In this document: positions 1 to 56,164 of the stretch, one piece after another | Layout: each line of letters opens with the position of its first letter | How positions within the stretch are numbered: position 1 is the stretch's first letter | Source: Squalus acanthias | Taxonomy: Eukaryota | DNA: 64,000 nt | Assembly: GCA_030390025.1 (NCBI GenBank) | Contig: JASTWF010000034.1 | Coordinates: forward strand, 2,790,001-2,854,000 | Reading direction: 5' to 3' | Notes under the pieces: model-generated | What the model was told of the DNA's origin: nothing | Seen by the model: only the letters and a program-made list of their open reading frames with translations | The model's database searches: none | Translations under genes and position numbers: made by a program

Positions 1-2758
1 GCAGCAAGAACCAAGTCCGTGGCACTACGAGTGGCTCAAATGCACAGGAGGGGAGTAAGAGTGGGAAAGCAATAGTGATAGGGGATTCTATCGTAAGGGG
101 ATTCTGTGGCCGCAGACGTGACTCCAGGATGGTATGTTGCCTCCCTGGTGCCAGGGTCAAGGAGGTCACTGAACGGTTGCAGGGCATTCTGAAGGGGGAG
201 GGCGAACTGTCAGAGGTCGTGGTTCACGTTGGCACCAACGACATAGTTAGAAAGAGGGATGAGGTCCTGCCACAAGAATTTCGGGAGCTAGGTAGCAGAT
301 TAAAAAGCAGGACCACAAAGGTTGTGATCTCTGTATTACTCCCGGTGCCACTTGCTACTGAGTACGGGAATAGGAGGATAGAGCAGATGAATGCGTGGCT
401 AAAGAGTTGGTGCAGGAGGGAGGGCTTTCGTTTCCTGGATCACTGTGTCTGCTTCTGGGGAAGGTGGGACCTGTACAAGTCGGACGGGTTGCACCTGAAC
501 CGGAACGGGACCAACATCCTTGCGGGGAGATTTGCTAGTACTGTTGTGGGGGGGTGGGGGGGGGGGGTGCGGTTTAAACTAACTTGGCAGGGGGATGGGA
601 TACGGAGTGGAGCTATAGTAGGGGGTGATGCACAGCCAAATATAGAGGAAAAAACAAGTCAGCCTGGAAGGCAGAGCAAATATATAACGGCCCAAAAAGT
701 AAGGCAAGGCTGGTGGGCATTTATTTTAATGCAAGGAGTATTGCGAGTAAGGCAGATGAATTGAAGGTGTTGATGAACACATGGTAGTATGATATTGTTG
801 CTATCACAGAGACATGGTTGAGGGAGGGACAGGACAGGCAGCTCAATATTCCGGGGTGTAGAATATTTAGGCGAGATAGAGGTGGGTGTAAAAGAGGAGG
901 GGGTGTTGCAATATTAATGAAGGAGTCAATTACTGCTGTAAGGAGGGATGATATCTTAGCAGGTTCCTCTAATGAGGCCATATGGGTAGAACTTAAAAAC
1001 AAAAAGTGGGCAAGCACTTTGCTGGGAGTTTACTGCAGGGCCCCAAACAGTCAGGGGGAGATAGAGGACCAGATATATAGGCAAATCTCAGAGAAGTGTC
1101 GAAATAATAGGGTAATCATAGCAGGGGATTTCAAATTCCCCAAAATTAACTGGGATAGTCAGAGTGTGAAAGGCTTAGAGGGTGCAGAATTCTTAAAGTG
1201 CATCCAGGAGAGCGTTTTGACCCAGCATGTAGAATGTCCTACCAGAGAGGGGGCGGTACTGGACCTAATTCTAGGGAATGTAGCCATGCAAGTGGTAGGA
1301 GTGTTAGTAGGGGAGCATTTTGGTGACAGTAACCATAATTCGGTGAGATTTAAGGTAATCGTGGAAAAGGACAAAGATGGACCTGAAATAATGGTTCTAA
1401 ATTGGGGGAAGGCCGATTTTAGCATGATAAGGCAGCATCCGGCCAAAGTGGACTGGGATCAGCTACTTGTAGGAAAATCCACATCAGAGCAGTGGGAGTC
1501 TTTCAGAAAGGAAATAGAGAGAGTACAACACCAACATGTTCCCGTAAAGGTCAAGTTTGGGACCAACAAGCTAAGGGAACCCTGGATGTCAAGGGATATA
1601 CAAGAATGGATTGGGAAAGAAAGAGAGGCTTTTGGCAGATACAAAGGATTAAAAACAGTGGAAGCCCTAGAGGAGTATAGAAAGTGCCGGGGCGTAATTA
1701 AAAAAGATATTAGGAGAGCGAAGAGGGGGCATGAAAAAAAACACTGGCAGGCAAAAAAAAGGGTAATACCAAGGTGTTTTATAAGTATATTAAGTGCAAG
1801 AGGATAACCAGGGAAAGAGTAGGGCCCATTAGGGACCAAAGTGGCAATCTGTGTATAGAGCCAGAAGATGTGGGTGAGGTTTTAAATGAATATTTTGCAT
1901 CTGTGTTCACTATGGAGAAGGACGATGTAGGCATAGAAATCAGGCAAGGCGATTGTGGTATACTTGAACAAATTAGAATTGAGAGGGAGGAGGTATTGTG
2001 GTTTTAGCGGGCATAAAAGTGTATAAATCCCCAGGCCCAGACGAGATGTATCCCAGGCTGCTGTGTGAGGCAAGGGAGGAGATTGCAGGGGCTCTGAAAC
2101 AAATTTTCAGAACCTCTCCGGTCACAGGGGATGTGCCAGATGACTGGAGAACAGCTAACGTAGTACCATTATTCAAGAAGGTTAGTAGGGATAAACCAGA
2201 GAATTAGAGGCCATTGAGCCTAATCTCAGTGGTAGGGAAATTATTGGAAAAAAATTCAGAGGGGCAGTGTTAGTCTACACTTGAAGAGGCAAGGATTGAT
2301 CAAGGATAGTCAGCATGGCTTTGGAAGGGGGAGATCAGTTCTAAGCAATTTGATAGAAGTGACTAGGTTTCTGGATGAGGGTAGTGCAGTTGATGTAGTC
2401 TACATGAACTTTAGTAACGCTTTTGACAACGTCCCACATGGGAGACTGGTCAAGAAGGTAAGAGCCCATGGGATCCAGGGCAATTTGACAGATTGGATCC
2501 AAAATTGGTTTATTTGCAGGAGGCAGAGTGTGATGGTCGAAGGTTGTTTTTGTGACTTGATGCCTGGGTCCAGTGGTATACCGCAGTGATCGGTGCTGGG
2601 ACCTTTGCTGTTTGTAGTGTACATTAATGATTCAGATATGAATGTAGGAGGCATGATCATCAAGTTCGCAGATGACATGAAAATTGGTGGAGTGGTAAAT
2701 AGCGAAGACGAAAGCCTCAGGCTACAGGACGATATAAACGGTTTGGTTAGATGGGCAG
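1..2758 (+). mobile_element. CR1 LINE, degenerate: ORF1 SGNH esterase domain, ORF2 APE endonuclease and RT N-terminal part; continues at 5541-6130
   Basis: GDSIVR...HVGTND...DGLHL (ORF1); ITETW, GDF, LDLIL, SNHN (endonuclease); KSPGPD, QHGF, FADD (RT); several stops and frameshifts. Confidence 0.93.
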
Positions 2759-3290
2759 AACATAGAAACATCGAAGATAGGACCAGGAGTAGTCCATTCG
2801 GCCCCTCGAGCCTGCCCCGATATTCAATGCGATCATGGCTGATCATTCAACTTCAGTACCCTGTCCCTGCTTTCTCCCCATATCCTTTGATCCACTCAGC
2901 CTTAATAAATATATCTAACTCCTTCTTGATAGATTTAATAAATTGGCATCAACTGCCTTTTGTGGTAGAGAATTTCACAGTTTCACCACTCTCTGGGTGA
3001 AGAAATTCCTCCTCATCTCAGTCCTAAATGGCTTACCCATTATCCTTAGACTGTGACCCCTGGTTCTGGAGTCTCCCGCCAACCGGAACAGCCATCCTAC
3101 ATATAGTCTGTCTATTGCTGTTAGAATTTTATATGTTTCAATGAGATCCCCTCTCATTCTTCTAAACTCTAGCGAATATAAACCTAATCGAAACAATCTC
3201 TCGTCATACGTCATTCCTGCCATCCCAGGTATCAGTTTGGTGAATCTTCGCTGCATTCCCTTCATGGCAAGAACATCCTTCCTCAGATAA
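2759..3290 (-). mobile_element. CR1 3' end on minus strand; same element continues at 4741-5540
   Basis: Reverse-complement (CTATGTTT)-type tail at 2759; LYSLEFRRMRGDL and RTRGHSL motifs; breaks at cagataa. Confidence 0.9.
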
Positions 3291-4740
3291 CCCCTCTTTT
3301 TAAAAAAGGAGGGAGGGAGAAAGCAGGGAATTATAGACCGGTCAGCCTGACATCGGTCGTGGGTAAAATGATGGAAGCAATTATTAAAGATTTCATAACA
3401 GACCATTTGGAAAGTGGCGACATGATAGGTCCAAGTCAGCATGGATTTGTGAAAGGGAAATCATGCTTGACAAATCTTCTGGAATTTTTTGAGGATGTTT
3501 CCAATAGGGTGGACAGGGGGGAACCAGTAGATGTGGTGTATTTGGACTTTCAGAAGGCCTTCGACAAGGTCCCACACAAGAGATTGGTGAGCAAAGTTAA
3601 AGCACATGGGATTGGGGGTAATGTGTTGACGTGGATTGAGAACTGGTTGGCACACAGGAAACAAAGAGTAGGAGTAAATGGGTACTTTTCAGAATGGCAG
3701 GCAGTGACCAGAGGGGTACCGCAGGGTTCGGTGCTGGGACCCCAGCTGTTTACATTATATATTAATGATTTGGACGAAGGGATTAAATGTAATATCTCCA
3801 AATTTGCGGATGACACTAAATTGGGAGGCAGTGTGAACAATGAGGAGGATGCTAGGAGGCTACAGAGTGACTTGGACAGGTTGGGTGAATGGGCAAATGT
3901 ATGTCAGATGAAGTACAATGTGGATAAATGTGAGGTTATCCACTTTGGTGGTAAAAATAGAGAGGCGGACTATTACCTGAATGGTGGCAGATTAGGGAAA
4001 GGGGAGGTGCAACGAGACCTGGGCGTCATGGTACATCAGTCACTGAAGGTGGGAATGCAAGTGCAGCAGGCAGTCAAGAAAGCAAACGGAATGATGTCCT
4101 TCATATTAAGGGGATTTGAGTACAGGAGTAGGGAGGTGATGCTGCAGTTGTACAGGGCCTTGGTGAGGCCACACCTGGAGTATTGTGCGCAGTTTTGGTC
4201 TCCTAACTTAAGGAAGGACATTCTTGCTATTGAGGGAGTGCAGCGAAGGTTCACTAGATTGATTCCTGGGATGGCCGGGCTGACATATCAAGAAAGATTG
4301 GGTCAACTGAACTTGTATCCTCTGGAGTTCAGAAGAATGAGGGGGAATCTTATAGAGACATTTAAAATCCTGACTGGTTTAGACAAATTAGATGCGGGCA
4401 GAATGTTCCCAATGTTAGGGAAAACTAGAACCAGGGGTCACAGTTTAAGGATTAAGGGGAAGCCATTTAAGACTGAACTGAGGAGGAACTTCTTCACCCA
4501 GAGAGTGGTGAATCTATGGAATTCTCTACCACAGAAGGTTGTTGAGGCCAGTTCGCTAAATATATTCAAAAGGGAGTGAGATGTAACACTCACAACTAGG
4601 GGGATCAATGGGTATGGCGAGAAAGCAGGAATGGGGTACTGAGGTAGCATGTTCAGCCATGAACGCATTGAATGGCGGTGCAGGCTCGAAGGACCGAATG
4701 GTCTACTCCTGTTCCTATTTTCTATGTTTCTATGTTTCTA
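3291..4740 (+). mobile_element. Young 5'-truncated CR1 (RT plus C-terminal domain) inserted inside the minus-strand CR1
   Basis: 406-aa open ORF with QHGF, YLDFQKAFDKVPH, GVPQGSVLGP, FADD; tail ctatgtttctatgtttcta. Confidence 0.95.
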
Positions 4741-5540
4741 AGGCGACCAAAACTGCACACAATACTCAAGGTGTGTTCTCAGCAAGGTCCTGTACAACTG
4801 CAGTAAGCCATCCTTGCTCTTGTACTCGAATCCTCTCGCTATGAAGGCCAACTTAGCATTTGCCTTCTTAACCGCCTGCTGCACCTGCATGCTTACCTTC
4901 AGCGACTGGTGCACAAGGACACCCAGGTCACGTTGCACTTCCCCTTTTCCTAATCTATTGTCGTTCAGATAATAATCTGCCTTCCTGTTTTTGCCACCAA
5001 AGTGGAAAACCTCGCATTTATCCACATTATACTGCATCTGCCATGCATCTGACCAATCACCCAACCTGTGCAAATCATACTGGAGTTTCTCTGCATCCTC
5101 CTCACAGTACACACGCCCACCCAGCTTTGTGTCGTCTGCAAGCTAGGAGATATTACATCTAGTTCCCTCATCTAGATCATTAATATATATTGTGAATAAC
5201 TGGGGTCCTAGCACCGATCCCTGCAGTCGCCCACTAGTCACTGCCTGTCACTCGGAAAAAGACCCGTTTATTCCAAAACTTTGCTTCCTGTCTGCCAACC
5301 AGTTTTCTATCCATGTCAGGACCTTATCCCTAATCCCATGTGCTTTAACTTTGCACGCTAATCTCTTATGCGGGACCTTATCGAAATTCTTCTGAAAGTC
5401 CAAATACACCACATCCACTGGTTCTCCGTTATTTATTCTACCAGTTACATCCTCAAAAAATTCCACTCGATTAGTCAAGCATGAATTAGCTACCCTCCAA
5501 TCCATGGGAACTGTTCCAGAGTCTATAGAATTTTGGAAGA
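4741..5540 (-). mobile_element. Remainder of the minus-strand CR1 interrupted at 3290
   Basis: cagataa (3284-3290) joins ggcgaccaaaac (4742), as in the uninterrupted copy near 53437-53452; internal deletion near 5487. Confidence 0.9.
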
Positions 5541-6130
5541 CAGGTAAAATAAGCTGGTTAAAAAGGCATATGGGATACTTGCCTTCATTAGCCGAGGCAT
5601 AGAATATAAGAGCAGGGAGGTTGTGTTGGAGATGTACAAAATGCTAGTTAGGCCACAGCTGGAATACGGTGTGCAGTCCTGGTCGCCACACTATAGGAAG
5701 GATGTGATTGCATTGGAGATGGTGCAGAGGAGATTCACCAGGATGTTACCTGGGCTGGAGCGCTTCAGTTATGAAGAGAGACTGGACAGTCTGGGGTTGT
5801 TTTCCTTAGAGCAGAGAAGGCTGAAGGGGGAGCTGATTCAGGCGTAAAAGATTATGAGGGGCATAGATAGGTTAGATAGAAAGGAATGTTCCCCTTAATA
5901 GAGGGGTCAATCACCAGGGCACATAGTTTCAAGGTAAGGGGCAGGAGGTTTAGAGGGGATTTGAGGAAAAACGTTTTCACCCAGAGTGTGGTTGCAATCT
6001 GGAACTCACTGCCTGAAAGGGTGGTAGAGGCAGGAACCATCACAGAATTCAAGAAGCATTTAAATGAGCACTTGAAACGCTATAGCATACAAGGCTACGG
6101 ACCAAGTGCTGGAAAATGGGATTAGAATAG
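5541..6130 (+). mobile_element. 3' portion of the first CR1
   Basis: LVRPQLEYGVQSWSPH, FSLEQRRL, WNSLPERVV, GYGPSAGKWD. Confidence 0.85.
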
Positions 6131-6132
6131 AC

Positions 6133-8860
6133 AGGGTATTGCGTCCAATTTTGAGCACCATACTTTCGCAAGCATGTCAACGAATAGAGAAGGTGTAGAG
6201 GAGATTTACCAGAATGGTACCAGGGATCTGGAACTTCAATTACGTGTAGAGTCAGGAGAAGCGGGGATTGTTCTTTTTAGAGCAGCGAAGGTTAAGAATC
6301 ACAGAATCGCAGAATCATACAAATTTACGGCACAGTAGGAGGCCATTTGGCCCATTGTATCTGCGCCGGTCGAAATAGAGCTATCCAGCTTAATCCCACT
6401 TTCCAGCTCTTGGTCCGTAGCCCTGTAGGTTATGGCAATTCAAGTGCATATCCATGTACGTTTAAAACGTGATGAGGGTTTCTGCCTCTACCACCCTTTC
6501 AGGCCTTGAGTTTCAGACCCGCACCGCCCTCTGGGTGAAACAAATTCTCCTCATCTCCCGTCTAATCCTTCTACCAATTACTTTAAATCTATGCTCCTTG
6601 GTTATTGACCTCTCTGCCAGGGGAAATAGGTGCTTGTTATCCACTCTATCTAGGCCCCTCATAATTTTATACACCTCAATTAAATCTCCCCTCAGCCTCC
6701 TCTGTTCCAAAGTAAAGAACCCCAGACTATTCTCCAGTCTTGGTAACATCCACGTAAATCTCCTCTATAATGTCTCAAATGCAATCACATCTTTCCTGTA
6801 ATTTTTTGACCAAAATTGTACGAAGTATTCTAGCTGTGGCCTAATTGGTGTTTTATACAGTTCTAGCATAAACTCCCTGCTTTTATATTCTATGCTTCGA
6901 CTAATAAAGCAATGTATCCCACATGCCTTTTTAACTACCCTATCTACATGCCCTGATAGTTTTAGAGATATGTGGAAATGTACTCCAAGGTCCCTCTGTT
7001 CCACTGCATTTCTCAGTATCCTACGATTTATTGCGTTTTCCCTTTGTTTTTGGCCCGCCACAAATGCATTACCTCACACTTCTCCGAATTAAAGTCCATT
7101 TGCCACTGTTCTGCCCACCGGACCAGTCCATTGATATATTATTGCAGTCTACAGCTGTCTTCCTCACTATCAACACATGGCCAATTTTTGTATCATTGCA
7201 AACTTCTTCATCATTTCCCCAACACTGAAGTCTAAATCATTGATATATACCACAAATAGCAGGGGACATAGTACTGAGCCCTGTGGAACCCCACTGGAAA
7301 CAACCTTCCATTCACAAAAACACCCGTTGACCATTACGACCTTTGCTTCCTGCCACTGAGCCAATTTTGGATCCAACTTGCCACTTTCCCATGGATCCAA
7401 TGACCAACCTGTCATGTGGGACCTTGTCAAAGGCCTTACTAATATCTACGTGGACTACATCAATTGCACTCCCCTCATCGACCCTCCTCATTACCTCCTC
7501 AAAAAATTCAATCAAGTTAGTCAGACACGAACTTCCCTTAACATTACCATGCTGACTGTCCTTGATTAATCTGTGCCTTTCTAAATGCCGATTTATACTG
7601 CCCCTCAGAATTTTTCAATATTTTGTTCCACCACCAAGGTTCGACTGACTGCCCTGTAATTACTCGGTCTATCCCTTTCTCCCTTTTTAAACAATGGTAC
7701 AACGATAGCAGTCCTCCAGTCCTCTGGCATCACGCCTGTAACAAGAGAGGATTGGAAAATGATGGTCTGAGCCTCCGCTATTTCCTCCCTTAAAAGCCTG
7801 TGATACATTTCCTCCGAGCCTCGTGATTTATCTAATTTCAAAGATGCTGAACCCATTAATGTTTCCTCTCTCACTATGTTTGTCTCATCTAATATTTCAC
7901 ACTCCTCCTCCTTACCTACAATGTCTGCATCGTCTCACTCTTCTGTGAAGACAGACACAAAGTATTTATTAAGAACCATATCCACGTCTTCCGCCTCTAC
8001 ACACAGATTAACTTTTTGGTCTGTAATAGACCATACTCTTTCCTTAGTTATCCTCTTGCTCTTGATGTATGTATAAAATATGTTTGGGTTTTCCTTGATT
8101 TTACTTGCCAATATTTTTTCATGACATCTCTTTGCTTTCCTAATTTCCTTTTTAATTTCACTCCTGCACTTTCTATACCCCTCTAGGCTTTCTGTAGTAT
8201 TGAGCTCTCGGTATCTGAGAAAAGCTTCCCTTTTTGTTCCCTTATCCTACCCTGTATTCCCCTTGACATCCAGGGAACTCTAGATTTGGAAGTCCCATCC
8301 TTTACCTTTTTGGGAATATATTTGCTCTGAGCCCTCACTGTCTCCTCGTTGAATACTTCCCACGGCTCCGAACTGATTTCCAATTAAGAAGCCGTTACCA
8401 GTCCACTTTTCCTAAATTACATCTCAGCTTAGTAAATTTGGCCGTTCCCAAATTGAAAACTTTTAAAACTGGTCTTTCTTTGTCCTTTTCCATTAGGGGA
8501 GATTTAATATTGATTATCCAGATGGTAATGGGTTTTGATAGAGTAAGTAAGTCTGTTTCCAGAGGCAGAATGTTGGGTAACCAGAGGAAACAAATTTGAA
8601 GTAATTGGCAAAAGAACCAGAGGAGAGATGAGAATTTTCTTTACGCAGTGAGTTGTGATCTAGAATGCACTGACTGAGAACGTGGTGGAAGCAGATTCAA
8701 TAGTAAATTTCGAAAGGGAATGGGGTAATTAGATGAAGGGGAATTTTTATGGGGCTCTGATTAAAGAGTAGGACTGAATTGATAACTCTTTCAAAGAGGC
8801 GGCATGGACACGATGGGCCGAATGCCCTCCGTCTGTGATGTACCGTTCTATGATTCTATG
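6133..8860 (+). mobile_element. Old CR1 3' fragment in two pieces (6133-6296 and 8495-8860)
   Basis: cagcgaaggttaag rejoins gggagatttaat (QRRLRGDL) across the insertion; tail ttctatgattctatg. Confidence 0.8.
6297..8494 (-). mobile_element. Degenerate CR1 ORF2 on minus strand
   Basis: Minus-strand ORF fragments with DISKAFDKVPH, GVPQGSVLCP, RRLRGDL; reverse tail agaatcacagaatc. Confidence 0.9.
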
Positions 8861-8861
8861 A

Positions 8862-8980
8862 GCAAGAGACAGAGAGAGAGAGAAGAGGGAGAGAGAAGAG
8901 GGGGAGAGAGAAAGAAAGGGAGAAAGAGAGAAATAAAAATAGAGACTGAAAGACAGGGAGAGGTACAGAGGGAGAGAAAT
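8862..8980. repeat. AG-rich microsatellite/low complexity
   Basis: (GA)n-rich purine tract. Confidence 0.85.
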
Positions 8981-9067
8981 TAACTTTAAAAGGGGAATTG
9001 GATAAATACCTGAAGGGGAAACATTTGCAGGACAATGGGAAAAGTGCAAGGGAATGGGACTAATTGC

Positions 9068-9560
9068 AGGGGTGAGGCCATGGTGGGATTTGAACATGAG
9101 GAGAAGAATATTTAAATCGAGTGGTTGCCGGATCGGCAGCCAATGTTGGTCAGTGAGCACAGGGGTGATGGGTGAACGGGACATGATATGTGTTAGGATA
9201 TGGGCAGCAGAGTTTTCGATGTGCTCTAGTTTACGGAGGCTTGTTACTGGGAGGCCGGCCAGGACAGCATTGGAATAGTCGACTCTGGGTTTAACAAAGG
9301 CATGGATGAGGGTTTATGCAGCAGAAGGGCTGAGGTGGAGCGGAGATGGGTGAAATTTTGGGGGTGGTGGTCGGCAGGAATGGTGATTGAGAGGATATGA
9401 GTTCGGAACTCAGTTCAGGGACAAAGAGATCGCAGAGGTTGCAAACAGCCTGGTTCAGCCTCAGACATTGACCAGGGAGGGGGACTGAATCGGTAGATAG
9501 AGAATGGAGTTTGTGACGAGGACCGAAGACAATGGCTTCGCTCTTCCCAAGATTTAAATG
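9068..9560 (-). mobile_element. L2-clade LINE ORF2 C-terminal fragment
   Basis: SPITPVLTDQHWLPIRQPLDLNILLLMFKSHHGLTP resembles the L2 HITPVL..LHWLP motif; LNLGKSEAIVFGP upstream. Confidence 0.8.
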
Positions 9561-9803
9561 ACAAAAACAGTAATTCAGTGAAACGTGATTTACAGACCCA
9601 ATATCTGGATATAGAGACTTACTGGGACACCAACAGCAGCAAAGAATGAAGAATAGTAATACAGTTAGCAAAGGTTTGTAGGGTTAATAGCTGGATAGAG
9701 AGGCTTACCAGAACAACAACCGCTGCAAGGAGGGGAGAGTAAATGACACGAACAGTAATACAGTAAAACATGGTTAACAGAATAGCTGGATAGAGAGACT
9801 TAC

Positions 9804-10026
9804 CAGGAACACCAACAGCAGCAAGGAGGGGATAGTAAATGTATTGAATAATCTGAAGTGCCAACTGTATCCGCCAGTCTAATGGTAGCCAATCATAATA
9901 TTCTGAAAGAAATAAAAAATCCAAGCTGAAACTCCTGCTCATTGTTGTAGCATTCCAATCTACTGTTCTCAGATTCTGATCCATTATTGTAACATTCCAA
10001 TCTACTGTTCTCAGATTCTGATCCAT
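9804..10026 (-). CDS. Exon 1 of a GPR139-like class A GPCR (glycosylated N-terminus and start of TM1)
   Basis: ATG at 10026; MDQNLRTVDWNVT...LQIIQYIYYPLLAAVGVP followed by G|GTAAGT donor; 223 nt, so phase 1. Confidence 0.8.
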
Positions 10027-10060
10027 TGTTGTAACGTTCCAATCTACTGTTCTCAGATTC
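9938..10060 (-). repeat. Three 42-bp tandem repeats overlapping the GPCR start
   Basis: NLRTVDWNVTTMDQ / NLRTVDWNVTIMDQ / NLRTVDWNATTMS. Confidence 0.9.
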
Positions 10061-10149
10061 CGACTCCCTCTCTGTGGAGCAGCGCGCTGATCCCTGTTAG
10101 TGCCGGAGGTGATGCTCTCACTGACACTATGGATAACACATTGAAAGGA

Positions 10150-10301
10150 GTCCCTTATTAATAGAAGAGGGAAACCCTGCACTGATACAATCAGAGTCCA
10201 TGGAGACTGACATTAAATACAGACACTGAACAAACATCTTCAGTTAACCCGTGGAGACTGACATTAAATACAGTCACTAAACAAACAGCTCCAGTTAACC
10301 C
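10150..10301 (-). promoter_or_regulatory. Candidate promoter of GPCR exon 1
   Basis: TATA-like CTATTAATAAG on minus strand near 10153-10163; duplicated ~50-bp block at 10201-10250 and 10252-10301. Confidence 0.4.
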
Positions 10302-10344
10302 CTTTCAATCCAACACTTTTTGTACCACAGTAAAGTAGAACATT

Positions 10345-11042
10345 TACCCGGTCCGGATGGGATGTATGAGGATTGCTGAGGGAAGGAATGGTGGAAATAG
10401 CGCAGGCTCTGGCCAGAATATTTCAATCCTCCTCGGATATGGGAGTGCTGCCAGCGGACTGGAGGGTTGCAAATGTTACACCCTGTTTAAAAAAGGAGAG
10501 AGGGATAAACCCTGTAACTGCAGGCCAGTCAGAATAACGTCAGTGGTATGGAAACGTCTAGAGGCCTTATTCACAGAGAAAAGTATCTGTCTTTGGAAAA
10601 AATATGGATTAATAAATGACAACCAGCACGGATATGTTAACGGCAAAGTGTGTCTGACAAACTTGATTAAATTCTTTGATGAAGTAACGGAAATGGTTGA
10701 TGAGGGTAGTGTGGTTGAGGTTGTGTATAGGGACATTAAAATGCATTTCATGAAGTACAATGGAATAGACTTGTTAGGACCAAAGGAACAGTGGCAGTGG
10801 GGATCTGACATTGGCTAAGGGACAGAAAACCGGGAGTAGTGGTGAACGGTTGTTGTTCAGACTGGAGGGAAGTGTACAGTGGTGTCCCCAAATGTCGCTA
10901 TTCGGACAACTGCTCTTTTTGATACATATTAATGATATAGACATATATATATATAGACATGTATATACATGTACATATACACACACACACACAGAGCGGG
11001 ATAAGGTAGGCTTCAGGAGTATATAGACAGACTGGTGAAATG
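10345..11042 (+). mobile_element. Old CR1 RT fragment; resumes briefly at ~12355
   Basis: LFKKGERDKP, QHGY, CLTNLIKFFDEV; DRLVKW frame rejoins gacaaatgg after the insertion. Confidence 0.8.
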
Positions 11043-12354
11043 AGCAAAGTGATGAAAGGTGCCATCGACAGTGCTATTGTGTGGCACTTACTCACTAATA
11101 ACCTTCGCACCGATGCCCAGTTTGAGTTCCGCCAGGACCACTCGGCTCCAGACCTCATTACAGCCTTGGTCCAAACATGGACAAAGGAGCTGAATTTCAG
11201 TGGTGAGGTGAGAGTGACTGCACTTGACATCACGGCAGCATTGGACTGAGTGGGTCATCAAGGAGACCCAGGAAAATTGTGGTCAATAGAAAGCAGGGGG
11301 AAAACTCTCCACTGGCTCAAGTCATACCCGGCACAACGGAAGATGGTTGTGTTTTTGGAGGTCAATCATCACAGCCCCAGGACATCGCTGCATGAGTACA
11401 TCAGGGCAGTGTCCTCGGCCCAACCATCTTCAGCTACGTCATCAATGACCTTCCATCCATCATAAGGTCAGAAATGGGGATGTTCACTGATGACTGCACA
11501 GTGTTCAGCGCCATTCACAACTCCATAGATAATGAAGCAGTCCATGCCCGCATGCAGCAAGACCTGGACGACGTTCAGGCTTGGTCTGATAAGTGGCAGC
11601 AATAACTATCTCCAACAAGAGCCACATCCCCTTGACATTAAATGGGATTAGCATCGCCAAATCCGCCATCATCAATATCCTGTGTGTCACCATTGACCAG
11701 AACCTTAACTGGACCAACCAGATAAATACTGTGGCTGACAGAGAAGGTCAAGGCTGGGTACTCTGCGGCGAGTGTCTCACCTCCTGAGCCCCCAAAGCCT
11801 TTCCACCATCTACACGGCACAAGTCAGGAGTGTGATGGAATACTCTCCACTTGCCTGGATGAATGCAGCTCCAACAACACACAAGAAGCTCGAAATCGTC
11901 CAGGATAAAGCAGCCCACTTGATTGGTACCCCATCCACCACATTAAAAATTCCCTCCCTCCACCAGCGGTGCACCGTGGCTGCAGTGTGTATCATGTACA
12001 AGTTGCACTGCAGCAACTCGCTAAGGCTTCTTCAGCAGCACCGTCCAATCCTGCGGCCTCTACCACCTAGAAGGACAAGGACAGCAGGAGCATGGGAACA
12101 CCACCACCTGTAAGTTTCGCTCCAAGTCACACACCATCCTGACCCGGAAATATATCGTTGTTCCTTCATTGTCGCTGTGTCAAAATCCTGCAACTCCCTC
12201 AGTAACAGCACTGTGGCAGTACCTTCACCTGACGGACTGCAGCTGTTCAAGTCGGCGGCTCACCACCACCTTCTCAAGGGCAATTAGGAATGGGTAATAA
12301 ATGCTGGTCGTGCCAGCGATGGCCACATTCCATAAATGAATAAAAAAGAAAAAA
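11043..12354 (+). mobile_element. Non-LTR retrotransposon of a second CR1/L2-group lineage, 5'-truncated, with A-rich tail
   Basis: DAQFEFRQDHSAPDL, TALDITAALD, IYTAQVRSVMEYSPLAW; ends aatgaataaaaaagaaaaaaa. Confidence 0.8.
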
Positions 12355-12375
12355 AGGACAAATGGAAGGGGAAAT

Positions 12376-13080
12376 TCCATAAATTCCATAGATTCTAGAA
12401 CGGTTCCCGCGGATTGGAATGTCTCAAATCTAACACCACTGTTTTAGAAAGGAGGGAGAGAGAAAACGGGGAACTACAGACCCGTTAACCAGACATCAGT
12501 AGTAGGGAAAATGCTTGAATATATTATTAAGGACGCGGTAACAGGGCACTTAGAAAATTATAATAGGATTGGGCAGAGTCAACACGGATTTATGAAAGGG
12601 AAATTGTGTTTGACAACTCTGTAAGAGTTTTTGGAGATTGTAACGAGCAGAATAGATAAGGGGGAGCCAATAGATGTGGTGGATTTGGATTTTCAGAAGG
12701 TATTCGATAAGGTGTCACACAAGAGGTTATTAAACAAAATTAGGGTTCATGGGATTAGGGGTAATATACTCGCATTGGTTGAGGATTGGTTAACGGACAG
12801 AAAACAGAGAGTTGCAATAAACGCGTCATTTTCGAGTTGGCAGGTTGTAACTATTGGGGTACCGTAAGAATCAGTGATTGGGCATCAGCTATTCACAATC
12901 CGCATCAATGATTTGGATGAGGGGACCAAAAGTAATATATCCAAGTCTGCTGATGATACAAAGCTGGGTGGCAATGTAAGTTGTGAGGACGATGCAAGGA
13001 GGCTTCAATTAGATAAAGACAGGCTAAGTGAGTGGGCAAGAACATTGCAAATGGAATATAACGTGGAGAAATGTGAAGTT
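12376..13080 (+). mobile_element. CR1 RT fragment ending abruptly with no 3' tail
   Basis: DLDFQKVFDKVSH, SADDTKLGG, YNVEKCEV, then unrelated sequence. Confidence 0.88.
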
Positions 13081-13105
13081 GATATCTGGTGATGTCCGCA
13101 GACAC

Positions 13106-13221
13106 GGGCCGAGAAATTTGTCTCAGGCGGTGGGTTAAACGAGCAATATCGGATCGGGCGCCCGTTTCACGCAGCGCCTGAGATTCAGTTCCACTGCAGT
13201 CAATGACGGATTTCTAGGCCT
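13106..13221. mobile_element. Short MITE-like element, probably PIF/Harbinger
   Basis: Imperfect terminal inverted repeats gggccgagaaatt / gatttctaggcct. Confidence 0.5.
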
Positions 13222-13454
13222 AGAGCTTCAATCCTTCACACTATTTTTCCAGCAAAGGTTTCTCCGTAACTCAGTGAAGCCTCTTCAGTGTCAAAGAACT
13301 AGTGTCAGTAATCCTGCACCATCAACACCACTGTGGTCCAAAAATCCATGGTCCCCTGTTTAAAAAAAAACTCCATTCTGGTTCTTAATTGTATAACATG
13401 TAATGAGCAGCTAAACAAGAGGGCAGAGCCACAGTCAGTGACACCGAAACATTC

Positions 13455-13728
13455 ACACAGGCTGCTTAAAGAGACAGGACCAGTCACACAGGCTGTTTAA
13501 ATAGACAGGACCAGTCACACGGGCTATTTGAAGGGACATAACCAGTCAGACAGGCTTTTTAAAGAGACAAGACCAGTCAGACAGGATTTTTAAAGAGACA
13601 GGACCAGTCAGACAGGCTTTTTAAAGAGACAGAACCAGTCACACAGGCTATTTGAAGAGACAGGATCAGTCAGACAGGTTTTTAAATAGACAGGACAAGT
13701 CACACAGGCTTTCAAAACAGAAAGGACA
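13455..13728. repeat. 31-bp minisatellite, about 9 copies
   Basis: Unit acacaggctgtttaaagagacaggaccagtc. Confidence 0.92.
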
Positions 13729-13744
13729 GGAAGCCTATCTTCTC

Positions 13745-15378
13745 AGTAAGGGGATAGAATCGGTGTCCTATGGGCCAATCACGGACGGCCCTTGAAGTGG
13801 CAACATTGTGCGCCTCCCTTCCACGTTGTTGCTGCTGATTCTCCTCTTCATCCTCCTCCTCCTCCTCTCCCTCCTCTCCCTCTTCTTCCTCCTCCTCTCC
13901 CTCTTCCTCCTCCTCCTCAGGTGGTGCACCAATCCCTGGTGGCAATGGTTGGGCCCCCATGATTGCAATGTTATGAAGCATGCAGCACACAACAATGAAG
14001 AGGGAGACACGCTCGAGAGAGTACTGCAGGACTCCTCCTGAGTGGTCCAAACACCGGAACCGTTGTTTCAAGACACCGATCGTGTGTTCAATGAGGTTCC
14101 TGGTGGAGCTATGGCTGTAATTGTATTGCAGCTCGGCAGGGGTGTTGGGGTTATGGAGCGGAGTCATCAGTCAGGTGCAGAGTGGGTAACCCTTGTCCCC
14201 GAGGAGCCATCCACTAGGTTTACACCGTGTTTGGAAGAGGTCTGCGACTCCGGTCTGGCACAGGATATAAGTATCGTGGTTGCTGCCATGATAGCGGGCA
14301 TTGACGGCAAGTATGAGCTGTCTGTGGTCACACACCAACTGGACATTCAGAGAGTGGGAGCCCTTTTGATTTCGGACTACCTCTGCATTCTCATGAGTTG
14401 CCCACATTGCCACATGCGTGCAGTCAAAGGCGCTCTGAATCATGGGGAAGCACATTCTCCTTGCAAAGCTGCGCATTCGCGTTGTTTGTCCTGGGTCATG
14501 GAGAAAGATGTACTGGCGTCTCCGCTTATACAAAGCCTTTGTCACCTTCCGGATGCAACAATGAACAGCGAACTGGGAGATATTCACTATTTCCCCAGTA
14601 GAAGCCTGAAAGGAACCGCTGACTTAGAAATTTAGATCCACTGTCACCTTCACTGCCACCGACAGAGACGTCCTGGTACTGAGCTGAGGCTGCAGATCTG
14701 ATTGCAGGAGATGGCAGAGCTCAGTGACAAATGATAAATCATTATAGGAGGAGAATTGCTCCCTGAATACCCTGGGAGGGTAAGGTCTCCTGTGCAGAGG
14801 CCTGTTGGCCCTCCTCCCTCTGGCAAGATATGCCACTCTCTCTCTGCGTCTCTGCTGCCTCCGAAGGTGAAGCTGGACGTCGAAGATGCCCCGAGTTAGT
14901 ACAGCCCCCATCGAAGCATCTATATATATCGTTAGAAGGTATGTGAAAAAGAAATGAACTCCAAAGTCGTGCTCCGGACCCAAAACTCTTTCGGTCAGCG
15001 TCGAATCTCTCCAGACGTCTGACTCCCTCTCAAAACATTTCGCAGACAAGAAAAGGCAGGAAGCGGCCGCCTTTAAATAGCGCTCCCTTCCCGACTTGAA
15101 AACATTTCCCTTTAATGTGTCATTCCTAGTGGCAGGCGCTAAGGCAGGAGGTGCGACTCAATATCCGGTCCAGGACGCTATCGGGGCATTGCATGCTCGC
15201 ATTAAGTCACGATCTGCGGGCTCAGGAGATTGTGGTGCTCGTCTTTTGCGCTAGCGCAAAACGACGTCAATTTCGCGAGCGGCGCTAAAATAGCCGCGCT
15301 CGGTTGCTCAGTATCGAGCGCCCCGTTAGTGCCTCCAAAGGCGCTGAAGGGCAGCGTTAACCAACCGACTTTCCACCC
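13745..15378 (-). mobile_element. PIF/Harbinger DNA transposon with decayed transposase (ATG near 14911); only one terminus visible
   Basis: SAFDCTHVA, KGSHSLNVQLVCD, GSNHD, LLGDKGYP, IEHTIGVLKQRFRCLD, CCMLHNIA across three frames; poly-Glu tail; terminus gggtggaaagt. Confidence 0.9.
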
Positions 15379-15611
15379 TCATGTTTATCTGTGTTTTCCA
15401 CTTTGTCGTTCCCCATAGCATCCGCGCTGCTGTCAGATATTGATTCTGAATGTGGTATTGTGTTACCAAGATTCAAATGTTCGAAATTCAACTCCAGCAA
15501 ATTTATTGGAGGTGACTTTTTATTCAACGAATTTCAGTCTGCTACCTACACTGAACATTTATATCAGATCAGAAGAATGCTGTCTTGGTTTAGGAGACTT
15601 TTCACCTAATG

Positions 15612-15743
15612 GTGAAAGGACATCGACCTGAAACGTTAACTCTGTTTCTCTCTCTCTCCACAGATGCTGCCTGACCCGCTGAGTATTTCCATCATTTTCT
15701 GTTTTCATTTCAGATTTCCAGTATCCGCAGTATTTTACTTTTG
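15612..15743 (+). mobile_element. Short Penelope-like terminal fragment with truncated hammerhead-like motif
   Basis: 13-bp target duplication ttttcacctaatg (15599-15611 and 15744-15756); homologous to 25712-25845 and 34190-34270. Confidence 0.7.
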
Positions 15744-17059
15744 TTTTCACCTAATGCTCGGTATGGTTACTTACAGAGTCACAGGAACAAATCCTGGCAG
15801 ATCACATCCACATCTTTAAATGTCTGAAATATCCGCTAATCATTCAGTTCCAGTCAATGTCTCCTTTCCCACCCTCTCCAGTTCTGCATTATTGGCACTG
15901 CTTCTGATGGTTAAAGTAGGATTACAAGGATAATTTGCATTCTCACAAAACGTTCATTCAGCCAGATTTCAAAACATTTCTAGCTGATCCATGTTTTGAA
16001 TTTGCAATTGGATCCCATGCCCGTCTGTCACAGTACAGTGGATCTGTCAGTGAGACCCAGAGTGATTCTCTATTGCCTCCTGCTGTACTTCAGGATAAAC
16101 AATCCCAGCTGATTGTAACTGAAGTACTGAGGATAAGAAAATTCTTTGATATCTTCTCGTCCAATATTCTCTGCACATTTTGGAAGCAACATGTGAAAAA
16201 GTACAAGGATAAATCTCTTCCATTTGTGTTCAGATACTTTACAACAGCATTCGGCGGCACTTTGCCTGTGGGTTAAGTCGTCTGATTTCGATGCTGATAA
16301 ATCCATTTAGTGGGACATTACCTGGTCAATCATCACTATTTACTTTAATTCAGAATCCATTATTTGCAATGTTACTTGGCAAATCTTCCTTTCAATGAGG
16401 TAGAATTTGTGTATTTCAACAAAAATGCAGAAAACTCAATCTTCAAAACATATCTGATAGCCCAGTTATCTTTATAACTGCAGTGCACTTGTATTTATTA
16501 TCTTAGCATTGTCGTATTACATCCGTACATTTTACATACAATTGCCTATAATTATTGCATGCCAAGGTCGCAGTTTCTGTATTTTGCTGTTGCATTCATT
16601 TTCAGTTCTAAATAGAATTGATATTCTAACCAAGAGCAGGAAACCAAGCGGGATTTCCCCCTCATTAACATAGTTGCGCAGAAGCGAACTGCACCGCTCC
16701 AAATGCTGACTGATCCCGGGACACGAAGGCTTCCTGACAGGGTCTGGTCCTTTGTGTCCCTGGTACCTCGGGCGGTGCTTTTGTCTGCTGGGCTAAATTT
16801 AGATCGATCATTTAATCTCTCCTTGATCAAACATCTGTTACTTTCATATTGTATGTATTCCCATTTCATTTGTTGATTCCACAATGTATTCCCGATTATT
16901 CTTACAATAAGCCCTGTATTCTGCTCCACAGGTAATAGGATTAGATTATATCGTTGAATGTCGCTCGTGAGTTGCAGATTTCACCCCGAATTCCATCAAA
17001 CTGCTGCTTTTGCTCCCAGCCTGATGAACAATTTCCCTGTTTATTTCCCTTCCTCACAG

Positions 17060-17925
17060 TTAACTTAGTGACGATTGTGATCCTGTCTCGGGGAAAGTGC
17101 GGTCTCTCCAAATGTGTCACTCGCTACCTGGTGGCCATGGCAACGGCGGATCTACTGGTCGTTATCCTCGACCTGATATTGAGACACATTCCGATTGTTT
17201 ATAGTGAACAGTATTATTTCGTGCAGTCCATCCCCGTGTGTAATATTCACGCCGACCTGCTGTTCGCAGCCACAGACTGTTCTGTCTGGTTCACCGTCAC
17301 TTTCACCTTTGATAGATTTGCGGCCATTTGTTGCCAGAAGCTGAAAACTAAATATTGCACCGAGAAAACGGCGGCTGTGTTTCTGGGAACAGTGACTGTG
17401 CTGAGCAGTTTAAAGGACATCACCTGGTATTTTATGTTTACAGATCAGTATATGCTTGGGAACGAGCCCTGGTTTTGTGATGTCACAGAGGGTGTTACAA
17501 AGTCACGGGTCTGGGGACCAATTGAGCTCCTTCATTATATTCTCACCCCGTGTGTCCCATTTGTGGTGATTCTGCTGCTCAATGCTGTCACCGTCAGACA
17601 CATTTTAGTGTCCAGCAGAGCCCGCAGGAGACTCCGGGGTCCCAGCAGTGGGGAGAGTCCCAGAGACCCAGAGATGGAGAGCCGCCGGAAATCCATCATT
17701 TTACTGCTTGTTATCTCCGGCAATTTCATCCTGTTATGGGCAGTGTTTATGGTGTTTTCTATATGTACCCGGATGTGGTATTTGGGGTATCAGTCTGTAT
17801 ATCTACCGTATTATGTAATGGAACTGGGATTCATGCTGCAGCTGCTGAGTTGCTGCACAAACACTGGGATTTATGCCGTGACCCAGACTAAGTTTAGACA
17901 GCAGTTGAAGAATATGGGGAAATAG
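17060..17925 (+). CDS. Exon 2 of a GPR139-like class A GPCR (end of TM1 to TM7 and helix 8)
   Basis: Acceptor ttcccttcctcacAG|TT (phase 1); NLVTIVILSRGKCGLS, MATADLL, FTFDRF, PCVPF, TM7 CTNTGIY; open for 288 codons. Confidence 0.88.
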
Positions 17926-18014
17926 CCCTTTACTCTGATTGTAAAATTAATTAAAGGTTGAGAAGAAGCAGAGACATTGCAGCCTGAGTGTTGACAGTTC
18001 CCTGGGCCTGAAAT

Positions 18015-19250
18015 TGTGGAGCCCAACACAAAGATGGCGGCTCTGGGTCCCGCACAAATGGCGGATCCTTGGCCCAGCACAAATATGGCGGCTATGGGTC
18101 TCGCACAAAGATGGAGGCTCCCGGGCACCGCACAGAAATGGCGGCTCTGGTGCCCCGCACAAAGATGGCGTCTCAGGGGCCCCGCACAAAAATGGCGGCA
18201 CTGGGGCCCAGCACAAAGATGGCGTCTCCGGGGCCCTGCACAAAGATAGCGGCTCTGGTTCCCGCACGAAAATGGCGGCTTTGGGGCCCCGCACATAAAG
18301 GGCTCCTCTGGGGCCGCGCACAAAGATGGCGGCTCTGCGGCACCGCACAAAAATGGCGGCTCTGGGGCTTTTCACAAAGATGGCGGCTCTGGGGCCACGC
18401 ACAAAAATGGCGGCACTGGGGCCCAGCACAAAGATGGCGGCTCCGGGGCCCTGCACAAAGCTCGCGGCTATGGTTCCCGCACGAAAATGGCGGCTCTGGG
18501 GCCCCGCACAAAGATGGCTTCTCTGGGGCCGCGCACAAAGATGGCGGCTCTGCGGCACCGCACAAAAATGGCGGCTCTGGGGCTCAGCACAAAGATGGCG
18601 GCTCTGGTGCAAAGCACAACGATGGCGGCTCTGTATCCACGCGCAAAAATGTTGGCTCTTTGGGCCCCGCACAATGATGGCGGCTCCGGGGCCCAGCACA
18701 TGGATGGCGGATCCGGGAAACAGCACAAAGATGGCGGCTCCGGGGCCCAGCACAACGATGGCGGCTCCGGGGCGCAGCACACAGATGGCGGCTCTGGTTA
18801 CCGCAGAAAAATGGCGGCTCTGGGGCCCCGCACAAAGATGGCGGCTCTGGGGCCCGCACAAAGTTGGCAGCTGTAGGTCCCAGCACAAAGGTGGCGGCAC
18901 CCGCGCCCTGCACAAAGAGGGCGGCTCTGGGGCCCCGCAAAAAGGTGGCAGCACACGCGCCCCGCAGAAAAATGGCGGCACTGATGCCCCGCGCAATGAT
19001 GACGGCTCTCACCCCTCTCCGTGCCCAGCACAAAGATGGCGCCACTAAGGCCCAGCACAAAAATGGCGGCTCCTGCGCCTGACTGAAACATGGCGGCTCT
19101 GGAGCAACGCACAAAGATGGCGGCTCCGGGGCCCAGCACAAAGATGGCGGCACTGGGGCCCCGCACAAAGATGGCGGCTCTGGTGCCCCGCACAATGATG
19201 GCGGATCTGGGTCCCGCACAAAGATGGCTGCTCTGGGGCCCAGCACAAGG
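18015..19250. repeat. GC-rich 27-bp minisatellite, roughly 45 copies
   Basis: Unit gcacaaagatggcggctctggggcccc; 9-aa periodicity in the ORF track. Confidence 0.95.
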
Positions 19251-19570
19251 ATTGCGGCAGTCGCTCGGGGTCTTTCCCTGGCGGCGGGAGGCGAGTGTCT
19301 GGATGGCGGGAGCAGTTGGAGTCCCGGTTACTGTGAGAGCGGGCGGCGAGGCGTAGCAGGCTGGCCCGGCACGGCCCACAGGACCCCGAGCAGCCCAGCC
19401 CGGGGAGGAGATGGCCCAGCACCAGGACTTTATTAGTCATTATAACACTTTAAAATCATTGCACCACTTTACAGATCTTTTATAACCCTTTATAAATCAT
19501 TATGACCATTAATGAAACATTATGACGCTTTTTCAATCAATATGACACTTGATAAATAATTTTATAACTA

Positions 19571-25845: not shown

Positions 25846-26981
25846 CGCCTGTCTGAAAATGTTTGAGGGAGCTTTAAGAACATTAGAAATAGGAGTAGGT
25901 GTCGGCCATGTAAGGAGTGGGGTCAACCTTCGCTTTCTGACACAGTGAGCGGTTCGAATCACTCCAACACCCCTCCGATCCCTAGACTTTGGGCTTATTT
26001 CGGGGTTGTGAACAAAATTGCAGTAAACAGGTTCTGATGAAAGAAATGTACTTTATTAAAAGAAAAAAAAGTAACAAACTTGAAACACACTTATTACTTA
26101 GAGACAGATTCGGGGAACACATGGTACAAGCGAGGGAAATGACAATATTTCAAGCAAAACCTTATCCCTCCCAAAGATCCCACTATCTGGCTAGGTTTTT
26201 GGTTTCAGAAGATCAGGGATATTGCTCACCAACGAACCCTTGACAGGATAGTCGCTCTGGTTTCTTCTTGCGTGCTGGTATTCTGGCCTCCTTCCTCGCG
26301 GCTTGTGGTAAGTTTTGCTGGAGCAGGGAGAGAGCTGTGTTCGCGTCGTCAGTCAGTCCAAAAAGAGAGAGAATATGGCACAGGCTTTCAAATTATACTG
26401 TTTCTTTTTCGTGCCTAAAAACCCCTTACTAAAACGAATTTCTTTTTGAATGTAAATGGCCCTTGCTTCGTCCAATTGTCTAGTTTTTGGCGGGCTGGCC
26501 AGTTTCGATGATTTTTGCTTAGTGTTAATCGTTTTCCGATTTAAAAACACGGCCTTATCTACGCGCGAAATCTTCACCCTATTGTCCTTCTGTTGGCGGG
26601 CTTTTAAATCTGTTCTCTGGATACCTGGTTGATTGTTTTTTTGATGGGATAATGGCTATGAAACTGTGTGATCGAAGTTATATTGTCATTGAATCGTTTG
26701 TAGATTTCCAGCATCTTGTTTGCCCCTGGGGATCCATATTTGAGTGTGTTTGTGAGTTTTGCTATTGTCTCAAACAATTCCCAGACAGCTTGATCTGTTC
26801 ACTGACCGGCCACGCCCCTCGCAGCTTGTGTCTGTGAAAAAAATGTCTCTCCCAACAATAAGATTCGAAAAGTCATTTTCCTCAGGGTTTCCTTCTTGTG
26901 ATCTTTAGGTTTTTACATCAAATCACTTCACTGAGGTCCCATCATCCCAAGTTTGTATGAAAAGTCCAAAAATCACTCCCT

Positions 26982-27980
26982 TTAGGGCTCTGTTCGAGTT
27001 TCTGGGTGATTTTGTGTGGCTGCAGCGCCCTCGTTCATATCTGTGGGCTCCTCCCAGCCTGAGGCTGCGGGCGGGGGATCCTTCTCTCTCTCTTCTTCCA
27101 GTACCACCTCTCCTGTGAAACCCTCACTGTTGGAGGCTGTAGGATGGGAGTCCCCAACTTTAGAACGCTCCCTGCTCTTGGGCGCTTTTCTTTGGGTGGG
27201 ACCCTCTAAACAGATACACCTGTGCCCACAGTAGCCTTTGCTGTGGTGTGCTAGGGGGGACATGCTTAGGGCTTTGTCCACTGGGGGTGTGCTTGAGTCC
27301 CACATAATCGGTGGAGTGACCTCTCCCATGAGACAACACACTGTCCCTCCCGCTGCAGCTTGTGCGTCTGCCACAACTGCGGCTGGCTGCGGATTTCTAA
27401 CTTGGGGGCCAGCCAGCTTTGCTGGCTGTTCCCTTTTAGGTTTAAACAGTTTACATTGGTCAATCTCCCACCCATGGATTCTCTGGGGTTCTAACAGCAG
27501 CCGATCTTTCTGGTGCCGGCTCCCCAGGTTACTGGCTGCTTGCCAGTGAACCTGTTTATAAATCTCGTCCTCTGCCCTGAACGGACCTACTAGGGACTCC
27601 ACACTCTCTCTCTTTACCAGGCCGGCCTTAAAGACGGGATTCTGGGCTTGGACCTGCTTTAAGTCCCGGGGAAAAGCTACCCCCTGTGTGCCTCCCTTGT
27701 CTCGGATTGCAGCTACCGGACCTGCTTTATAGGGATCCCATAACTCTCCTTCACTGGCCCCCTGCTTGGCCAAATTGTCGGCCTTTTGGTTACCCTCCCA
27801 CGTGGTATGGAGGGATCCTAAATCTATGTCCAAATGTTTGGACATTGCCCCAGCCTGCTTGTTCCCTGTGATTCCCATTAAACTGTAGGGGACCCCGTTA
27901 AACCTGGGTGAATTGGTCAGGTCTTCTGAATGGACCACCGTGCTGGCAGCTCCGGTGTCCACCAAACACCTCCCCTGCAC
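26982..27980 (-). pseudogene. pol: Deleted pro-pol remnant: protease fused to RNase H C-terminus
   Basis: CLVDTGA aspartyl protease motif; GNQKADNLAKQGA; no RT or integrase core motifs seen. Confidence 0.75.
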
Positions 27981-28059
27981 TTTCTCTACCCCCTTCTTAA
28001 CATCGTATCCCGGGGAACACAGGTAGACAGGTTGCGCTGGTTCCAGTCATAGGTCTGAG

Positions 28060-29540
28060 TTAGGGGGGGGGGGCTGATGGGATTAATGCACTAGTAGCTA
28101 CATTCCCTGGATCACCAAACAGGACTCTGATGGCCGCTACTATTGTGTCCAGTGTGGGGGAAGAGGTCGGTGCCTCTACTTTTGGGGCAAAAGCTGGGGA
28201 ATTCTTTGTGAGCATATCCTTCCAGGGATTTCTACAGTTTTTTCTCCAGTGCCCCCTCTTCCCGCACCCGAAGCAGTTACGCTTCGTGTCGGAAGATTTA
28301 CCACCTTCCTGGTGCCACTCCTTCTTATCCTGACTGGGCTTTATCTCATGCACCTTCCCTTTCGGTGGGGTGTCTTCAGCTCCCCTACCGTTCCGGTAGG
28401 CTAGGGTCAGTTGCCTGACCACTGCCTCCTCGGTGACCCGGGGATCTCTTGTGTCAAACCAAAGCTCAGCCATGGCTTTTACTCGTGGCAAGCTGTTTGT
28501 CACTAGGCTACGGAGCCAGTGGGCCAGCTCGTCCCTGTTCAGGTTAGCCCTGTCGAGAACAAGCACAACTGTACACCGGCCACAGCCTGTCGGCGAAAGC
28601 CTGTGGCGTCTCCTCTGCGAGCTGCACTGTTTTCTCCACCCGGGAGAAAGGACTTCCCTCATTCATTCCCATGGCCTCTAAAACTTCCTCCCTGAGGGCA
28701 GCATACATGTTCTGTCCTTTCTTGCTCTCAGTAGAGAGTGACTGGTAGAATTTGCCATCTAATGAAAACAGGAGCAATTTTGCCATTTTGGCATCGTCAC
28801 AATCGTTAATGGCTCCTGATTGTTCCACCTCCATGAAGTGGACTGAGGGGTCTTCCTTTTGGGTAAGTTTACTCAGGTGGCTTACCATAGCCCTAAGCTG
28901 TTGTGTACCTTGGGGAGCCAAGAATTGACTTTCAAGGGGTCCCTGACCTCCACCACCGGCGGGCGGGCCGAATTTTTGCTGTCGTGCAGGGCACATTGAC
29001 CCTGGCTCCGACTTCTCCTGCATCGGTTCGCCCCCCTCTCCCTGCTGCCAGACCGAGTCAAAACTCGGCGCCACAGGCGCTGGTGTGCACTCCCTGTCAG
29101 CCTCACAGATTGTCTGCCCCTCCTGCTGCCTAACCAAGCTTCTCCTTGGCGCCACAGGTGGTGGTCGAACAGTCTCCCCCTGCTCTTCCAGGTCTGCCCT
29201 GGCCGCACCCGGGCTTATCAGGCACAGCATGCCTTTTGCCTTGGACAGAGCAAGGTTCAGACTCTCAATCTGCTTCTGACAGGGGCCGTGGTCCCCTACC
29301 TCAAACTCCCTTGTACTGGCTACTCTATAGGCTGCCTGAACATCGTTTAACTTCTCTGTGAGTTCCCTTAATTGCTTGGCAAGGCGGGTGTTCTCTTCCC
29401 GCAATGCCAGTTCACTACTTTTGGCCTCGGTGGCCTGACACTGGAGGTATCCCTTACTGGCACGGTGTTCCTCCAGCATCTGTGACTGTTCCTGATCTTT
29501 TGTGCCGAGCTCTGCTAACAACATATCCCCTGCTATAGCT
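28060..29540 (-). pseudogene. gag: gag remnant, frameshifted, N-terminus deleted
   Basis: Coiled-coil region, capsid-like segment, CFGCGKRGHWRKNC zinc knuckle; split across two ORFs. Confidence 0.8.
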
Positions 29541-56140: not shown

Positions 56141-56164
56141 TTTTCTGGCCACCGCGCATATTAT

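Follow-up and report, generated by a model that had tools for sequence, protein, structure and literature searches.

A 64,000-nucleotide stretch of the Squalus acanthias genome (assembly GCA_030390025.1, contig JASTWF010000034.1, positions 2,790,001 to 2,854,000), called the window in the following, carries two coding exons of a G-protein coupled receptor (GPCR) resembling GPR139 on opposite strands. Exon 1 lies on the minus strand (9804..10026) and exon 2 on the plus strand (17060..17925), facing apart with 7 kb between them. Exon 1 runs from an ATG at 10026 to 9804 (74 codons plus one nucleotide, i.e. phase 1) and ends in GTT CCT G|GTAAGT; it encodes the N-terminus with about three 14-residue (42-bp) repeats and the first half of transmembrane helix 1 (TM1), and additional in-frame ATGs occur at 9984 and 9942. 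Exon 2 starts at 17060 (TT AAC) behind a pyrimidine tract and a CAG, and extends from the second half of TM1 into the beginning of helix 8. Conceptual joining of both exons yields YYPLLAAVGVP-V-NLVTIVIL in TM1. This phase-matched arrangement on opposite strands had been described in an earlier note made from the letters of the window, and its coordinates, splice sites and TM1 join were all reproduced here. The accompanying claim that neither exon has a second copy suited to it was confirmed: blastn and tblastn searches with both exons, and tblastn searches with the N-termini of homologs, revealed neither an exon 1 on the plus strand nor an exon 2 on the minus strand within the 64-kb window. 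As the window contains no N, the exons are not separated by a scaffold gap.

The product of exon 2 represents a rhodopsin-class GPCR core (Pfam 7tm_1, E = 1e-18, 68.2 bits against a cut-off of 30.5). It ends prematurely in a TAG at 17923-17925, where 100 of 117 homologs possess a tyrosine, and the next stop codon, a TGA at 17959-17961, lies 11 codons further on and coincides with the ends of the homologs. The splice sites are canonical, as previously stated, but the reading frame of exon 2 is not fully open. Apart from this stop, the exon is well preserved: it deviates from the consensus at one of 114 highly conserved columns, compared with a median of two among the same 117 homologs, 89 of which deviate at least once, although these homologs had been chosen by their likeness to exon 2. 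The first plus-strand AATAAA behind exon 2 occurs only at 20184, beyond a 27-bp satellite array (18027..19258, no strand assigned) which begins about 65 bp behind the stop that matches the homologs. This array and a second one with units of 25-29 bp (55289-58235) contain the cores AAGATGGCGGC and AAAATGGCCGCC, which we take to be YY1-like.

Sequence searches with the exon 2 product returned 2,467 relatives at E values of 1e-10 or better, 120 of which were listed. All 120 are shark models annotated as 'probable G-protein coupled receptor 139', 118 of them from three shark genomes, and 119 are 73-81% identical to the exon 2 product, 81% being the maximum. The best homologs of the exon 1 product are 59-66% identical in their N-termini and have the 14-residue repeats in common. 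These identities, together with the motifs at the exon junction, place both exons in an expanded GPR139-like family of sharks; RefSeq and UniRef models of Heptranchias perlo, Heterodontus francisci and Pristiophorus japonicus show the same 14-residue repeats and the same residues at the join. The window departs from a complete member in that its exons are not arranged in order on one strand and in that the C-terminus is cut 11 codons early. Human GPR139 (PDB codes 7VUG and 9M42) is a distant relative, reached through the close homolog P0007, of which it is the best match among solved structures (E = 7.9e-10, covering TM1 to helix 8); the exon 2 product alone gave no match to solved structures at E = 1e-8. 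Judged from these similarities, the label 'GPR139-like' is fair. No account of such a family in sharks was found in a literature search covering listings and the openings of abstracts. The main text of PMC11979771 contains no occurrence of GPR139, and its supplements could list such genes.

In the 14-residue repeat region of exon 1 (9940-10060, minus strand), every copy of the repeat contains a predicted N-glycosylation sequon, and the number of repeats differs widely between homologs.

The seamless TM1 join had been read as a sign that both exons belong to one gene. Among the 93 homologs with a recognisable exon 1, the motif at the end of exon 1 is shared by 91 and that at the start of exon 2 by 88, and the residue split by the intron is valine in 80 of 90 homologs possessing exon 1. 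Almost any exon 1 of the family thus fits almost any exon 2, and the join is uninformative on pairing. Where all members have their intron at a fixed place, a match of intron phase says nothing about which exons belong together, and this argument for a single gene had to be given up.

The sequence upstream of exon 1 (10027..10340, minus strand) is likely its 5′ untranslated region and promoter. It includes a 51-bp repeat present twice at 10201-10301 and a motif, TATTAATAAG, at about 10163-10154 on the minus strand, which we assume to be TATA-like, and it is covered by contigs from other sequencing runs at 92-94% identity. On the other side, the 5′ end of the exon 1 intron (9555..9803, minus strand) contains two decayed tandem copies of the end of exon 1 with its donor, which had been overlooked in the earlier note. 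Their last exon-like bases are at 9709 and 9623, with spacings of 95 and 86 bp; counted from the ATG at 10026, they would end in phases 0 and 2 and are therefore out of frame with exon 2. A Heptranchias model (P0077) opens with a similar unit, so that the triplication of the exon 1 end may be old and shared. Directly behind these donor units follows a fragment of a long interspersed nuclear element (LINE; 9070..9554, minus strand) without Pfam match, which is presumably L2-like.

Between the promoter of exon 1 and the native 3′ part of the intron of exon 2, the window consists of repeats only, plus 25 unassigned bases. A CR1-type reverse transcriptase fragment without 3′ tail (10341..10940, plus strand) adjoins the promoter and is followed by a 5′-truncated LINE which belongs to another family and ends in an A-rich tail (11055..12349, plus strand) and by a second CR1-type reverse transcriptase fragment (12350..13080, plus strand), which is cut after a KCEV motif and represents a candidate rearrangement junction. 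The 25 unassigned bases precede a DNA transposon of the PIF/Harbinger type (13106..15378, minus strand) with DDE_Tnp_4 in two frames and an internal 31-bp array. A matching 3-bp target duplication was looked for at this transposon and not found. A short element at 32468-33168, bearing terminal inverted repeats, has similar ends; it shows 66% likeness to the 5′ end of the transposon and is probably a non-autonomous relative. The transposon is possibly young, as the listed contig pieces match it without differences in two samples. The 3′ part of the intron (15379..17059, plus strand) contains a short repeat at 15613-15744 and leads through the pyrimidine tract to the CAG acceptor. Tandem Repeats Finder detected no array with a 26-bp unit between 10340 and 17060.

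CR1 copies in both orientations had been proposed as substrates for an inversion through the intron. Inverted repeat pairs within positions 1-18000 are 64-79% identical, and at such identities the CR1 copies would be too old for a recent recombination. The cut at 13080 is still one candidate for a breakpoint, as had been suggested, but it is not special: the window has many CR1 copies with tail-less or abrupt ends, a complementary half was not found left of exon 1 within it, and the two minus-strand CR1 elements there both run through the point of the cut. Searches of the window detected no inverted recombination sites.

Twenty public sequencing runs were listed, none of them recorded as RNA and six guessed to be RNA; they have no bearing on expression. 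Contigs from four of these runs, including one RNA-like run (by guess), were overlaid on positions 1-17990 at a likeness of at least 92%. The overlay is dominated by repeats, and the observations refer to the 15 of 2,042 joints, 24 of 9,993 loose ends and 32 of 436,764 pieces that were listed. Contigs over the exon 2 site 17686 numbered 54 in run X1 and 45 in run X5, and those over the exon 1 site 10036 numbered 21 and 32, respectively; such summed depths are not equated with copy numbers. The accumulation of contigs over both exons and over the ends of the intron, at identities of at least 92%, is consistent with many close paralogs. At 10036, 17205 and 17686, the contigs of the RNA-like run differ in their letters from the window copy, which assigns this signal to paralogs.

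Among the 15 joints listed, in a listing dominated by repeats, none connects exon 1 with exon 2 or changes strand, and none of the listed pieces spans 10.5-13.6 kb; with so small a share listed, this does not count as evidence of absence. The junction between promoter and CR1 near 10340 is bridged by a piece of run X13 (10308-10447) from another organism, which suggests that this junction is ancestral. The junction between transposon and intron at 15378 is bridged without any difference by pieces of X1 (15262-15515) and X5 (15268-15445), two samples of two studies, one of which may be the source sample; this bridging shows only that the junction exists. A rearrangement junction would therefore lie between about 10450 and 15378. 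No more than 0.52-0.61 of the words sampled from 15400-17990 are present in the best DNA runs, and at 16303, 16400 and 16922 every contig of X1 and X5 shows a letter other than that of the window. Contigs drop rare variants, which bears on such absent letters; they leave room for a misassembly or a private copy.

Half-genes are frequent among the relatives. The exon 1 half of TM1 is missing from 30 of the 120 listed models, several of which start in repeat-derived sequence or at exon 2. In clusters chosen for the absence of exon 1, and hence in a biased pick from which two members of 29 residues were dropped, 20 of 27 further members lack it as well; many of these are flagged 'partial' and lie on scaffolds of at least 0.2 Mb. 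Partly duplicated pieces of exon 2 occur in models P0001, P0002 and P0041. Many of the RefSeq and UniRef models are 'partial' and made up of exon 2 alone, whereas in the window an exon 1 on the opposite strand is nearby.

Within a species, the two exons of annotated relatives tend to be co-inherited. The nearest neighbour of a given exon 1 was within the top three for the corresponding exon 2 in 16 of 31, 11 of 36 and 13 of 19 cases in three species, where about three were expected, and a Mantel test of co-inheritance was positive in two of the three. This tendency among complete models speaks against a free mixing of exons as the norm, although such models have both exons on one strand by construction. 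An apparent mismatch between the lineages of the two window exons (rho = -0.06, with 9 of 93 true pairs as low) was rejected because it reflects species signal; after removal of this signal the medians were -0.002 for true and -0.012 for mismatched pairs, with 0.057 for the window, in a test without power.

We favour, with a probability of about one half, the reading that each exon is the half of a different gene copy and that a deletion or an inverted duplication brought the two halves together. In its favour are the size of the family, the nearly invariant residues around the intron, the frequency of gene models without exon 1 and of duplicated exon 2 pieces, the premature stop, the many paralogous contigs on both exons, the lack of inverted repeat pairs above 79% in 1-18000 and of a complementary CR1 half in the window, the co-inheritance of exons in relatives and the absence of any N. 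Exon 1 would begin a gene which runs leftward and whose own exon 2 would be located left of the window, behind an intron of more than 9.8 kb. Exon 2 on the plus strand would have been orphaned when a neighbouring gene lost its promoter and exon 1, either by deletion between copies arranged head-to-head or by an inverted partial duplication. The resulting junction would be situated somewhere in the repeat-filled interval 10450-15378, with 13080 as one candidate, and the two exons likely make no joint mRNA. Of the explanations offered earlier (a recent inversion, antisense paralogs or a misassembly), a rearrangement in a repeat-rich receptor cluster appears to be the right kind, without the argument for one gene drawn from the seamless join.

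Several observations weigh against this reading. The predicted leftward exon 2 falls outside the sequence examined, the same searches detected no other exon of the family in the 46 kb right of exon 2, and for an isolated locus a single inverted gene would be the better fit. Exon 2 does not look like an old orphan, although the homologs used for comparison were selected by likeness to it, and its TAG spares TM7 and may be tolerated. Models without exon 1 may in part reflect a failure of annotation across long introns. As to co-inheritance, the Mantel test gave no signal in one of the three species (rho = 0.01), and RefSeq-type models have both exons on the same strand by construction, which limits this result.

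The strongest competitor, which we regard as possible but less likely than the two-copy reading, is a single gene broken by inversion of its promoter, exon 1 and part of its intron, with the far breakpoint left of exon 1 and probably outside the window; it would have produced a recent pseudogene which is possibly polymorphic. The 64 kb contain a single exon 1 and a single exon 2, both little decayed, and the CR1 fragment 12350-13080 stops abruptly 25 bp short of a transposon that has no matching target duplication. However, exon 1 is not flanked by near-identical inverted repeats in 1-18000 (79% at best), no minus-strand CR1 piece beginning at the cut was found between the left end of the window and exon 1, many other CR1 copies of the window end just as abruptly, and the match in phase is a property of the whole family. 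With either one gene or two copies, the event was probably recent because exon 2 is barely decayed. The preference for two copies is drawn from the frequency of models consisting of exon 2 only, from the lack of breakpoint halves in the window and from the general experience that deletions outnumber inversions; this weighting is not proven. A misassembly, in which a repeat within 10.4-15.4 kb common to two paralogs led the assembly from the upstream region of one into the other's intron, is unlikely. It would be facilitated by the many near-identical paralogs and agrees with the low word content of 15400-17990 in the best DNA runs and with the deviating letters at 16303, 16400 and 16922 in all X1 and X5 contigs. 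Yet the absence of any N from 64 kb of repeat-rich sequence and the resolved satellite arrays of kilobase length suggest a long-read contig, no repeat in the interval exceeds 2.3 kb, and the junction at 15378 is intact without differences in two samples, one of them maybe the source.

Two further explanations leave both exons functional. The canonical splice sites would suit two intact antisense genes with interleaved introns, one whose own exon 1 would lie on the plus strand beyond the left end of the window and be spliced over at least 17 kb to exon 2, the other splicing leftward from exon 1. We consider this improbable, since it needs a longer intron enclosing an opposing promoter and since exon 2 carries a premature stop. 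Less probable still is an arrangement in which the exons are joined by trans-splicing or exon 1 resides on a reversible inversion, as had been raised speculatively before; nothing in its support emerged from our analysis. In-phase canonical sites on opposite strands and the many models of relatives without exon 1 speak for it, but the window searches found no inverted recombination sites, the premature stop applies here as well, the contigs of the run guessed to be RNA derive from paralogs at 10036, 17205 and 17686, and in relatives the two exons mostly stay together. Furthermore, according to PMC3875859, sense-antisense fusions in human data were mostly artefacts. The same very low probability is given to a family-wide mixing of N-terminal/TM1 exons with receptor-core exons by trans-splicing or invertible segments. 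If it were true, copies with exon 2 only would be live acceptor modules providing combinatorial receptor diversity in a vertebrate GPCR family.

A precedent for joinable exons on opposite strands is the Drosophila gene mod(mdg4). As described in PMC12692577, trans-splicing gives rise to all of its mRNAs, in which common exons are connected to alternative 3′ exons with promoters of their own. The window shares with mod(mdg4) only the placement of potentially joinable exons on opposite strands, and the models of its relatives are ordinary ones with two exons. If trans-splicing or a switch did operate at this locus, it would constitute a new way of diversifying vertebrate receptors.

The favoured reading has small importance by comparison: the locus would be one more broken copy, most likely ordinary debris of the family, and illustrates family turnover by partial duplication and rearrangement. 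Receptor clusters evolving by birth and death, such as those of olfactory receptors, contain gene fragments. The shark family resembles them as a large and recent family with partial copies, premature stops and junctions filled with repeats. It differs in that its intron lies inside TM1, and rearrangements therefore leave recognisable half-genes.

The remainder of the window is rich in mobile elements. At 1-6136, a plus-strand CR1 is interrupted at about 2760 by a minus-strand CR1, which is itself split by a plus-strand CR1 at 3288-4740. At 25983-30580, two direct repeats of 1,033 bp, 96% identical, enclose minus-strand frames; these frames lack reverse transcriptase and any Pfam match and contain motifs which we take to be CCHC-like and DTG protease-like. 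This element is probably a non-autonomous long terminal repeat (LTR) retroelement. An open gag-protease frame of an LTR retrotransposon (Asp_protease_2) occupies 62826-63998 on the plus strand and runs off the end of the window.

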